This document shows positions 3,663-3,697 of a stretch of DNA of 64,000 nucleotides, in pieces. A program made the translations under genes and the position numbers. The notes under the pieces were generated by a model. The model did not search any database and was not told where the DNA came from. It worked only from the letters and a program-made list of their open reading frames with translations. Origin of the DNA: Escherichia phage iGC_PHA_EC001; sequence record OR437326.1; one strand, written 5' to 3'. Numbering within the stretch: the first letter of the stretch is position 1; every line of letters begins with the position of its first letter.

Positions 3663-3697
3663 TTGACAAACGTATCCTTCATATGTTAGGATACGTT
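3663..3697 (+). promoter_or_regulatory. sigma70-like promoter (TTGACA-N18-TAGGAT) with overlapping 9-bp inverted repeat
   Basis: TTGACA at 3663-3668; inverted repeat AACGTATCC / GGATACGTT at 3669-3677 and 3689-3697; upstream of tRNA cluster. Confidence 0.45.

Follow-up and report, generated by a model that had tools for sequence, protein, structure and literature searches.

The closest known analogue of the layout described here is the promoter-early stem-loop (PeSL) cassette of the T4-type phages RB49/phi1, PST and nt-1 (PMC2839356; PMC4122927). The PeSL stem-loops, described as having terminator activity, may be placed upstream or downstream of the promoter boxes, between them, or on top of the -35 or the -10 (PMC2839356). 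Near-consensus promoters have also been listed for related large myophages: 33 sigma-70 promoters were predicted in rV5, 11 of them with an extended -10 (PMC3606486), and the Certrevirus CB7/CR3 promoters follow the pattern AAAA-N3/4-TGTTGAC-N17-19-TATAAT with an UP element (PMC7344957).

The window analysed here, a stretch of 64,000 nucleotides from Escherichia phage iGC_PHA_EC001 (OR437326.1), belongs to a Phapecoctavirus, a phAPEC8-like myophage infecting E. coli, with ESCO37 (~98% identical) as a close relative. A search for promoter annotations in ESCO37, ASO2A, phi92, phiWec190, KP13-26 and Tr1 returned terminators and ribosome-binding sites only, and a literature search found no transcriptomes or start-site maps for Phapecoctavirus or phi92. 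Rfam searches (gathering threshold, and also E ≤ 1) gave tRNA matches only; neither the promoters nor the 200-nt leader RNA had a match. Relatives were collected by a portal-based search (7 loci in IMG/VR and 7 in metagenomes); because it gave few loci, the covariation sample comprises ~9 lineages. The SKA64 label "RNA polymerase sigma factor" near 2924-3655 was dropped, being without Pfam or PHROGs support.

The motif TTGACA-N16-18-TANNNT occurs 16 times in the window against 3.68 expected, a count reached in none of 100 shuffles. Exact copies of CTATTGACAA number four (0.25 expected; 0 of 100 shuffles), and with one mismatch permitted the excess is weak (13 vs 7.4). A generic 9-of-12 sigma-70 scan of the window showed no enrichment (42 vs 48.9 expected); among sigma-70-like matches, the near-consensus class alone stands out. 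All 13 intergenic sites are co-oriented with the downstream gene or tRNA, at distances of 2-269 nt from predicted start to next feature, and the TG of an extended -10 (at -15/-14) is present in 9/13 intergenic vs 3/24 genic matches. A preliminary description of the window had listed eight sites as a promoter family, and the enrichment upholds it, all eight being intergenic and co-oriented. The coordinates and sequences that it quoted are present as given, except at 5977, where the hexamer is TTGACT and not TTGACA. Its list was incomplete, lacking 2619, 3106, 6413 (TTGCAA), 46842 (minus strand), 59807 (minus strand, TTGCAA) and 60802 (minus strand). The predicted promoters are as follows.

P2619, 2619-2648, plus strand: TTGACT-N18-TACCCT with a strong UP-like region, heading the rightward transcription unit; belongs to a separate sub-class of three copies that share a conserved downstream box.
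P3106, 3106-3134, plus strand: TTGACT-N17-TAAACT with a TG extended -10, just 5' of ORF 3147-3398.
P3663, 3663-3692, plus strand: TTGACA-N18-TAGGAT with a TG extended -10 and a predicted start at ~3699; predicted output, a ~200-nt structured RNA, then tRNA-Met and tRNA-Arg.
P4250, 4250-4279, plus strand: TTGACA-N18-TAGATT with a TG extended -10 and the best UP-like upstream region; predicted start directly 5' of a tRNA-Ser(TGA)-like gene (4288-4374); orthologues in phiWec190 and phi92.
P5212 (P_Gly), 5212-5241, plus strand: TTGACA-N18-TATAGT, predicted start ~5 nt ahead of tRNA-Gly (5253); orthologues in every lineage examined.
P5977, 5977-6005, plus strand: TTGACT-N17-TAAGAT with a TG extended -10, 24 nt past an intrinsic terminator (5935-5953).
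P6413, 6413-6442, plus strand: TTGCAA-N18-TAAGAT with a TG extended -10, immediately 3' of a terminator hairpin and T-run.
P9401, 9401-9429, plus strand: TTGACA-N17-TATTAT, 3 nt past the terminase stop codon and upstream of the portal gene; -35 and flanks invariant in 5 lineages.
P11093, 11093-11121, plus strand: TTGACA-N17-TAGACT, between the portal gene and the head-module genes.
P21539, 21539-21568, plus strand: TTGACA-N18-TACAAT with a TG extended -10, flanked by an intrinsic terminator upstream (~21508-21536) and a hairpin downstream (21578-21598).
P46842, 46813-46842, minus strand: TTGACA-N18-TAGGAT with a TG extended -10.
P53278, 53250-53278, minus strand: TTGACA-N17-TATACT, 18 nt past a terminator (GGGCTTCGGCCC plus T-run).
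P59807, 59779-59807, minus strand: TTGCAA-N17-TATACT with a TG extended -10; the GC hairpin GAGGGGGAGAAATCCCCCTC adjoins the -35.
P60802, 60775-60802, minus strand: TTGACA-N16-TATAAT with TG, near-consensus, within the 3' end of the upstream ORF; next gene 35 nt on.

The promoters precede tRNA sub-clusters, lysis, portal, head and baseplate genes and several leftward replication genes. Spacers are 16-18 bp among family sites. Typically, the -35 reads TTGACA(A) and is preceded by A/T-rich DNA, which is UP-like in some members; 17-18 bp of spacer follow, and then, often, TGnTAnnnT. Against the UP consensus reportedly given by Estrem et al. 1998, just 4 tested sites matched at ≥9/15 (2619, 4250, 11093 and 53278), and the mean UP-like score was 6.9 at tested sites vs 5.4 in the background. 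The -35, the spacing and the -10 are kept in the orthologous promoters of phiWec190, phi92, KP13-26, Tr1 and metagenomic lineages, and the promoter sites are conserved across at least six lineages of the subfamily Stephanstirmvirinae. An "extended -35" had been proposed for the family. The A following TTGACA is common in the window and kept in relatives; the 5' CTA was rejected as a recognition element because orthologues do not keep it, reading GTA, GTG, TAC or CTC, and it is lineage-specific. The sequence CTATTGACAA is common to four window promoters and missing from their orthologues.

Enrichment, position, orientation and conservation thus obtained in silico give good support to a family of strong near-consensus promoters, putatively used by host sigma-70. 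With them, the near-consensus boxes, the 17-18 bp spacing, the TG and the A/T-rich upstream regions lend good in silico support to the host sigma-70 recognition proposed earlier, sigma-70 use and start sites being predictions. Like rV5 and CB7/CR3, for which no phage RNA polymerase has been reported, the window has near-consensus -35 and -10 boxes, a subset with extended -10, UP-like A-tracts, and promoters across early, replication and structural modules. The -35 flanks read TGTTGAC in Certrevirus and (C/G)TATTGACAA in the window. Unlike in the window, core-overlapping stem-loops and covariation are not described in the reports on rV5 and CB7/CR3.

Significant stem-loops over core elements were found at P3663, P5212 and P11093 alone. 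These three, and a hairpin downstream of P9401, are as follows.

3669-3697, plus strand: P3663 stem-loop, AACGTATCCT / loop TCATATGTT / AGGATACGTT, across the spacer and -10.
5208-5226, plus strand: P5212 stem-loop, ACTATTG / ACAAC / CAATAGT, over the -35.
11104-11145, plus strand: P11093 terminator-like stem-loop of 15-16 pairs including 3-5 G·U, with a 6-nt loop, then T5.
9438-9468, plus strand: P9401 downstream hairpin, at ~+2 to +33 of the transcript, dG -20.8 kcal/mol.

Palindromes had been noted at several members; they are no general trait of the family, as 10 of 13 tested promoters are without a significant stem-loop over core elements. Individually, the palindrome at 3669-3697 proved to be far above chance (dG -18.5 kcal/mol, z -5.1, 0 of 300 shuffles), with outer pairs between TTGA (3663-3666) and TCAA (3700-3703). 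The one reported at 5207-5226 has its stem proper at 5208-5226; this is weak in the window (7 bp, P 0.019, -5 to -6 kcal/mol) and gains support from covariation across lineages. The spacer palindrome at 9412-9423 was dismissed as chance (z -0.4; missing from phi92, KP13-26 and Tr1), and a stronger stem-loop on the P11093 -10 (11104-11141, fold z -2.5) had been overlooked. The control promoter groups 4250, 9401 and 5977 gave fold z near 0 in every lineage, and by this test P4250 has no significant stem-loop. Stem-loops lie upstream of the promoter at 5977, 6413, 21539, 53278 and 59807 and downstream at 9401 and 21539; an adjacent or overlapping stem-loop was not found at 2619, 3106, 4250, 46842 or 60802. 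The P9401 hairpin, annotated as a terminator in ASO2A, is kept in position and varies in sequence, with other GC-rich stems there in phi92, KP13-26 and Tr1; lying right at the transcript's 5' terminus, it recalls those E. coli mRNAs that a 5' stem-loop stabilises.

Comparison between lineages showed that the stems change sequence and keep pairing. The phiWec190 orthologue of the P3663 stem (AAGCGTGTCTT/AAGATACGCTT) differs by two double changes and one G·T, with no pair disrupted. Through one of these compensated changes the -10 reads TAAGAT instead of TAGGAT; the orthologues in phiWec190 and lineage L014 have a 17-bp spacer and TAAGAT, and the loop carries an indel between P3663 orthologues. 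P_Gly stems of 6-10 bp were found in 9 sequences from at least six lineages (P 0.004-0.2 each), with arms that differ by phage (ACTATTG, AGCCTCTT, TTAATACTTG, TAGTCCTTG, AGCCCTTG and TGCTTG) and a register relative to the -35 that moves by up to 3 nt between lineages. Within the subset of 5 sequences in one register, 95% of cells are paired vs 27-55% when slid, 3 pairs are compensated on both sides, and covariation is 0.425 vs 0.214 (2/500 shuffles). When all 9 sequences were placed in fixed columns, three registers mixed, 69% were paired vs 63% in shuffles (10/500 reaching this) and covariation was 0.226 vs 0.201 (124/500), a count that is unconvincing because three registers coexist. In most elements the fold is more stable on the sense than on the antisense strand. 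At P11093 the sense strand gives -12.3 (window) to -16.3 kcal/mol and the antisense strand -4 to -9; the antisense fold is more stable in two, the window P3663 and the P_Gly of lineage L020. Stem-loop significance, covariation and sense-strand bias are, like the promoter statistics, computed results.

On balance, we consider it probable that this region combines sigma-70-type promoters at unit junctions with RNA stem-loops of the upstream transcript, and not with operators. The three overlapping conserved stem-loops most likely end or protect the upstream transcript instead of serving as phage-repressor sites; RNA hairpins are preferred over a common operator because the stems covary, differ by promoter, shift register and tolerate G·U on the sense strand. 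At most junctions there would be one RNA stem-loop, part of the transcript arriving from the upstream gene, and its placement would be set by the room available: it precedes the promoter at 5977, 6413, 21539, 53278 and 59807, covers the -35 at 5212 and the spacer and -10 at 3663 and 11093, and comes just past the start site at 9401. The role in termination or protection is a prediction that differs by site. At P11093, which has a U-run, the stem-loop would terminate or attenuate read-through transcription. At P3663 and P5212 it may shield or mark the 3' end left on the upstream RNA once a downstream tRNA or ncRNA has been removed. Transcripts from the embedded promoters would start at or past the 3' arm; they would lack the 5' arm and therefore should pass the stem-loop unaffected.

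Several features are shared with PeSLs: a strong, intergenic sigma-70-like promoter with an A/T-rich upstream region and a stable stem-loop adjacent or overlapping, the presence in the window of all five stem-loop positions, G-T pairs in the stems and, in the close relative ESCO37, GC-rich (GGGCGG...CCGCYC) repeats between small early ORFs. The PeSL stem-loop has been read as a terminator or attenuator of upstream transcription, and by analogy the same reading is proposed here. Because the Stephanstirmvirinae are unrelated to the T4-type phages, we regard the two as analogues and not homologues. PeSLs flank ORFans of hyperplastic regions and have polyG/polyC stems; the three overlapping elements of the window flank tRNA, portal and head genes, and each has a stem of its own, rich in A/U. 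A repeated cassette (~18 copies) occurs in the ESCO37 early region alone, outside the window.

An intrinsic (Rho-independent) terminator has a G+C-rich stem, a short loop and, after them, a U-run. As no U-run follows the stems of P3663 and P5212, these two are not canonical examples. The P11093 element resembles an intrinsic terminator in its stem, 6-nt loop and U5 run; it differs in having 3-5 G·U and only 2 G-C pairs, and for the latter reason the terminator scan did not call it. The -10 of P11093 lies within the 5' arm and loop of the hairpin, and the predicted start within the 3' arm. The element is nearly invariant from -10 to +25 in 9 lineages: the hairpin/U-run block is 92-97% identical between lineages, identity drops to 44-78% in the spacer's upstream part and to 71-85% in the CDS downstream, and the -35 block is 90% identical across the 9 lineages. 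Such near-invariance would equally fit a protein-binding site or a 5'-UTR element, and P11093 is uninformative on the operator question because its conservation leaves little variation for covariation. We predict that the hairpin and U-run form a terminator of read-through RNA. A bolder reading, which we think rather unlikely, sees the P11093 element as a switch in which terminator and promoter are nested and which the entire subfamily has kept nearly intact. The hairpin of the read-through RNA would then have the -10 of the next promoter as its 5' arm and loop, and termination of the portal transcript would be physically coupled to initiation at the head genes. For instance, one could interfere with the other, or the ratio of portal to head expression could be set by a factor that binds the RNA or the DNA. 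More generally, covarying stem-loops straddling the -35 would represent a selected insulation of packed units in large lytic phages beyond the T4 group.

The preliminary description had suggested operator-type control by a phage factor. On that account, the palindromes are dyad DNA sites for a dimeric regulator of the phage (or host), which represses or activates the overlapped promoters. Operators such as those of lambda PR/OR, P22 and 434 have a common consensus within a phage, with sequence and spacing kept. The window palindromes resemble them in placing dyad symmetry on the -35 or -10, the usual place of repressor action, and the near-invariance of P11093 from -10 to +25 in 9 lineages is like that of a protein site. 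They differ from these operators in that the arms differ by site (AACGTATCCT, ACTATTG and ATATCCTGTAGA are unrelated, with no common consensus) and covary between phages, orthologous promoters swapping arm sequence yet keeping complementarity. Loop or spacing is unequal (5, 9 and 6 or 18 nt), the P_Gly register shifts, and most of the mismatches in the stems are sense-strand G·T, tolerable in an RNA helix. The pentamer TATCC, found in the spacers of three window promoters (3106, 3663 and 11093), was considered as a half-site and rejected, since it is not retained in the phiWec190 orthologues. A scan of four adjacent small ORFs found no DNA-binding domain, and most family members are without any palindrome. 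Taken together, these observations make operator control unlikely.

The strand bias bears on two further accounts, both very improbable in our judgement. Extrusion of the inverted repeats as cruciforms, with the promoter switched by superhelical state, would suit the P_Gly repeats, which are perfect or near-perfect, have 4-5 nt loops in A/T-rich surroundings that favour extrusion, and sit on the -35, where a cruciform would obstruct sigma region 4; equal stability on both strands is also seen in several stems. This slightly less favoured of the two needs pairing on both strands, but the antisense strand is weaker in several elements (a sense G·T is A·C opposite), with -11.8 vs -6.0 for phi92 P_Gly and -16 vs -5 for P11093. 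The stems are short (6-10 bp), and P11093 and P3663, with loops of 6-9 nt and G·U-rich stems, would be poor formers. The other account is that a minus-strand hairpin at the -35, followed by a T-run (the UP complement), stops antisense transcription into the tRNA cluster. Minus-strand sequences of this form are present in phi92 (AGCCCCTT-tgtc-AAGAGGCT, then TTTTAATATTT) and Tr1 (TAGTCCTTG-ttgt-CAAGGACTA, then TTTTAAAAC), and the minus strand folds better in L020 and the window P3663. Against it, most elements are more stable on the sense strand, the long rightward block has no convincing leftward promoter downstream (minus hits are genic and at chance frequency), and P3663 and P11093 are left unexplained. 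Compatible with RNA stem-loops at junctions, and in itself of low probability, is a mainly recombinational role for the repeated promoter/stem-loop units, which would offer short stretches of homology for the shuffling of tRNA genes and small ORFs; the same has been proposed for PeSLs (PMC2839356). The tRNA count varies widely by lineage (10-12 in the window, 16 in phi92, 20 in KP13-26), the restriction of CTATTGACAA to the window copies suggests local homogenisation, and the ESCO37 early region has ~18 near-identical promoter and GC-hairpin cassettes between small ORFs; the three overlapping stem-loops, however, have unique arms and thus little mutual homology. That the palindromes are functionless accidents of A/T-rich promoter sequence holds for 9412-9423 and for a weak AACAT/ATGTT pairing in P4250, and TTGnCAA is self-complementary by itself. 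As a general account it is extremely unlikely, given the z of -5.1 at P3663, the P_Gly stems of differing sequence in at least six lineages and the null control promoters; for 3669-3697, 5208-5226 and 11104-11141, chance is ruled out by conservation and covariation.

These results leave the current understanding of transcription unchanged. They provide a usable predicted transcription map for Phapecoctavirus-type phages, which are employed in therapy and typing, marking unit starts, junction stem-loops and the promoters of tRNA sub-clusters and head genes. For annotation, they caution against taking every palindrome on a -35 or -10 for an operator. The near-consensus promoters are candidate strong, compact synthetic parts, and the P11093 element offers a natural design in which a terminator would be bypassed by the next promoter. 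The promoter/stem-loop layout was already described in T4-type phages, and the window is a further case; the PeSL-style layout, a promoter fused to the stem-loop of the upstream gene, extends beyond the T4-type phages.

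Around the finding, a 3.5-kb segment shares 98% identity with Escherichia phage vB_EcoM_ESCO37 (ESCO37) and many other genomes of Phapecoctavirus, the phAPEC8-like myophages (~150 kb) of the subfamily Stephanstirmvirinae. Every match to TTGAC[AT]/TTGCAA-N16-18-TAnnnT was placed on the gene map of the window, and predicted promoters are named by their -35 start (P3663 and so on).

Genes and predicted promoters
1-2500 (-): leftward genes
~2900 to 45450 (+): rightward gene block, which also contains lysis genes and head, tail and fibre genes
3902-5819 (+): tRNA cluster, inside the rightward block
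7322-9397 (+): terminase, rightward block
9499-11064 (+): portal, rightward block
45500 to 64000 (-): replication genes, leftward again
2619, 3106, 3663, 4250, 5212, 5977, 6413, 9401, 11093, 21539 (+): intergenic promoters
46842, 53278, 59807 (-): intergenic promoters
60802 (-): near-perfect promoter match 35 nt ahead of the next gene, still within the 3' end of an ORF

The fibre region is laid out differently in ESCO37. A 653-bp gap left by a simple ORF picker (32879-33531) holds a terminator-like hairpin (caccccgctccggcggggtg followed by tttt) and then apparent coding sequence.

The preliminary description had reported a TTGACA-N17/18-TAnnnT promoter family, and its coordinates and sequences proved correct except at 5977, which reads TTGACT. 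The family is enriched in the window: TTGACA-N16-18-TANNNT has 16 matches where 3.68 are expected (a number reached in 0 of 100 shuffles), and exact CTATTGACAA has four against 0.25. A loose 9-of-12 consensus scan gave no enrichment (42 observed, 48.9 expected), so the excess is confined to the near-consensus class. Thirteen matches lie between genes and point in the direction of the gene or tRNA that follows; the others are intragenic, often antisense, and about as numerous as expected by chance. An extended -10 (TG at -15/-14) is present at 9/13 intergenic sites vs 3/24 genic matches. The 22 nt upstream of the promoters are A/T-rich, and a few sites (2619, 4250, 11093, 53278) resemble the E. 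coli UP element. A good TTGACA-N17-TATAGT match at 56278-56306 (-) lies within the first 50 nt of CDS 55378-56322 (ESCO37 annotation), reflecting either a mis-called start codon, an internal promoter or chance.

The same region was fetched from five further lineages: phiWec190 (77% DNA identity), phi92 (69%), Klebsiella phage KP13-26, Citrobacter phage Tr1, and several contigs of viral or metagenomic origin. In the lineages compared, the -35, the spacing and the TGnTAnnnT -10 are kept at the promoters before the portal, the head-module gene, tRNA-Gly, the tRNA-Ser sub-cluster and the gene following the tRNA cluster. The "extended -35" held in part: orthologous sites mostly retain the A that follows TTGACA, but their 5' CTA is replaced by GTA, GTG, TAC or CTC, so the extension is at most TTGACAA. 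On this enrichment and conservation, the proposed recognition by sigma-70 appears right. For related large myophages, promoter sets of this sigma-70-like type, carrying an extended -10 or UP elements and distributed across all modules, are already predicted: rV5 (33 promoters, 11 with extended -10; PMC3606486) and Certrevirus CB7/CR3 (PMC7344957). For Phapecoctavirus ASO2A, nine promoters have been counted (PMC10612097). We found no transcriptome or start-site map of Stephanstirmvirinae/Vequintavirinae in the literature.

Palindromes over the core elements are not a property of this promoter family. The segment from -12 to +46 relative to the -35 start was folded for the 13 window promoters, with 300 dinucleotide shuffles each. 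Only P3663 (dG -18.5 kcal/mol, z -5.1) and P11093 (-10.5, z -2.5) stood out; P5212 was weak (z -1.3), and the remaining folds were within noise. Across lineages, significant stems were found for P3663, P11093, P_Gly (P5212 and its orthologues ahead of tRNA-Gly) and several lineage-specific promoters, with the P4250, P9401 and P5977 groups as null controls (z ~0). The palindromes first described at 3669-3697 and at P_Gly are borne out; that at 9412-9423 (CACTTTAAAGTG) did not reach significance and has no counterpart in phi92, KP13-26 or Tr1.

The P_Gly stem spans the -35, its 5' arm taking in TT(G) and its loop (G)ACA(A); it was found in 9/9 sequences with differing arms (shuffle P 0.004 to 0.2 per sequence).

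Arms of the P_Gly stem
Window: ACTATTG/CAATAGT
phiWec190: ACTATTG/TGATAGT, two G·T pairs
phi92: AGCCTCTT/AAGGGGCT
KP13-26: TTAATACTTG/TAAGTATTAA
Tr1: TAGTCCTTG/CAAGGACTA
Related-phage locus L019: AGCCCTTG/CAAGGGCT
Related-phage locus L020: TGCTTG/CAAGCA

Among the five sequences in the same register, 95% of cells were paired vs 27-55% with the partner column slid, two-sided changes were seen at three pairs, and covariation scored 0.425 vs 0.214 in shuffles (2/500 shuffles); the paired columns hold almost all the variation in this otherwise 88%-identical alignment. With fixed columns, all nine sequences gave an unconvincing 69% paired vs 63%, because three registers coexist.

At P3663, a 10-bp stem (AACGTATCCT/AGGATACGTT) encloses the extended -10. 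Its counterpart in phiWec190 and a second related phage (AAGCGTGTCTT/AAGATACGCTT) differs by compensated changes at two pairs, a single G·T and a loop indel; one of the compensated changes falls in the -10 itself (TAGGAT to TAAGAT). Between the predicted P3663 start and tRNA-Met(CAT), 3702-3899 (+) encodes a highly structured RNA of ~200 nt (MFE -76.8 kcal/mol, z -5.6) whose 5' and 3' ends form a closing stem of ~24 bp. It has no Rfam match, even at E<=1, and among the loci examined was seen only in Phapecoctavirus; in alignment with the same two phages, 12 predicted pairs are kept through two-sided changes. It may represent a new phage ncRNA that is transcribed together with the tRNAs. Two tRNA-like genes missed by ARAGORN lie nearby: 4288-4374 (+) (35.7 bits on the tRNA-Sec model, below threshold; tRNA-Ser(TGA) in the ASO2A annotation), starting ~2 nt past the predicted P4250 start, and 4600-4684 (+) (39 bits on the tRNA model; tRNA-Tyr in ASO2A).

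The P11093 stem-loop, overlooked in the preliminary description, folds as ACAAATATCCTGTAGA-CTAAGA-TTTATGGGATATCTGT followed by TTTT, with 15-16 pairs, 3-5 of them G·U, and a 6-nt loop. Its 5' arm and loop contain the -10 (TAGACT); its 3' arm contains the predicted start. Across nine lineages, identity is 90% in the -35 block and 92-97% in the hairpin/U-run block, vs 44-78% in the spacer segment between them and 71-85% in the downstream coding sequence. The element is nearly invariant and so uninformative for covariation; at P11093 alone, it may instead be a protein site or have a 5'-UTR function.

Most window junctions have one stem-loop near the promoter.

Stem-loop position by promoter
Before the promoter: 5977, 6413, 21539, 53278, 59807
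Over the -35: 5212
Over the spacer and -10: 3663, 11093
Just past the start: 9401 (hairpin 9438-9468, -20.8 kcal/mol; position kept, sequence changed between lineages)

The overlapped stem-loops occur at tight gaps: P3663 begins 8 nt past a stop codon, P_Gly lies 3-14 nt after a small CDS in Tr1 and phi92, and P11093 sits in the 93-nt portal-to-head gap.

The palindromes had been suggested to reflect operator-type control by a phage factor. This is most likely wrong, since they have no common consensus, differ in geometry, shift in register relative to the -35, have their arms replaced between phages with compensation, and are missing from most family members. A TATCC pentamer common to three window spacers was considered as a half-site, but phiWec190 does not keep it. 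The four small ORFs adjoining the tRNA cluster gave no DNA-binding or sigma domain. In 2924-3655, a small ORF is labelled "RNA polymerase sigma factor" by a single GenBank record (SKA64); for the three ORFs there, the only matches were to PHROGs families of unknown function, with no Pfam sigma domain among them. When each element was folded on both strands, the sense strand was more stable in most, with two exceptions (P11093, -12 to -16 vs -4 to -9 kcal/mol; phi92 P_Gly, -11.8 vs -6.0; 4/5 lineage-specific elements). Because a sense-strand G·T would be A·C on the opposite strand, these folds argue against cruciforms and minus-strand terminators alike and point to an RNA helix in rightward transcripts, i.e. 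in read-through from the upstream gene. Given a -10-to-start distance of ~7 nt, the own transcripts of P3663, P5212 and P11093 are predicted to start at or beyond the 3' arm, and so would form no hairpin.

Initiation would be by host sigma-70 holoenzyme, with the stem-loops acting on RNA coming from upstream. The P11093 stem-loop would be an intrinsic terminator, probably partial. Those of P3663 and P5212, without U-runs, may be an attenuator, a processing mark or a 3' exonuclease block following RNase P or RNase E release of the downstream tRNA/ncRNA. 5' stem-loops stabilise E. coli mRNAs, and the hairpin at the extreme 5' end of the P9401 transcript may have the same effect on the mRNA downstream. 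The most novel of the surviving readings, and an improbable one, has the invariant nested terminator-promoter between portal and head genes acting as a coupled switch.

A distinct three-copy promoter type, TTGACT-N17/18-TACCCT with a conserved box (A)CGAGCG(C/A)(A/T)AGCGAGT ~15 nt later, lies at 2619-2690 (+) in the window and at 16150(-), 53830(+) and 127500(-) in ESCO37; each copy heads a major transcription unit, and the element, kept in phiWec190, may function as a leader or as a regulatory RNA site. GTAC-containing repeats (gtactctgtactcaagtactgtactccgtact) cluster in the 479-bp divergent intergenic region 2445-2923, which also has a long palindromic block of A/T (ttaataattattaaatattaataataaataattatta) and is a possible origin or control region.

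The promoter-early stem-loop (PeSL) cassettes of T4-type phages combine a strong sigma-70-like promoter, an A/T-rich upstream region and a stem-loop; five subclasses place the latter between the boxes, over the -35, over the -10, upstream or just downstream, G-T pairs in stems were noted, and terminator activity was seen with reporters (PMC2839356; PMC4122927). The window junctions share this layout, but the phage is unrelated to T4 and its three overlapped stems have unique sequences; the likeness would be one of layout, and strict membership is not claimed. Closer to PeSL are ~18 near-identical cassettes between small early ORFs at ESCO37 136,900-147,000, outside the window, which strongly resemble those of RB49/phi1 (A-rich tract, TTGACA-N16-TAAGAT-like -10, and GC hairpin GGGCGG...CCGCYC whose first base is at ~+3 to +8). 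We found no description of such promoter/stem-loop elements in Stephanstirmvirinae or Vequintavirinae in the literature. The feature is the sigma-70 promoter set of large lytic myophages together with PeSL-like promoter/stem-loop junctions, both of known kinds.
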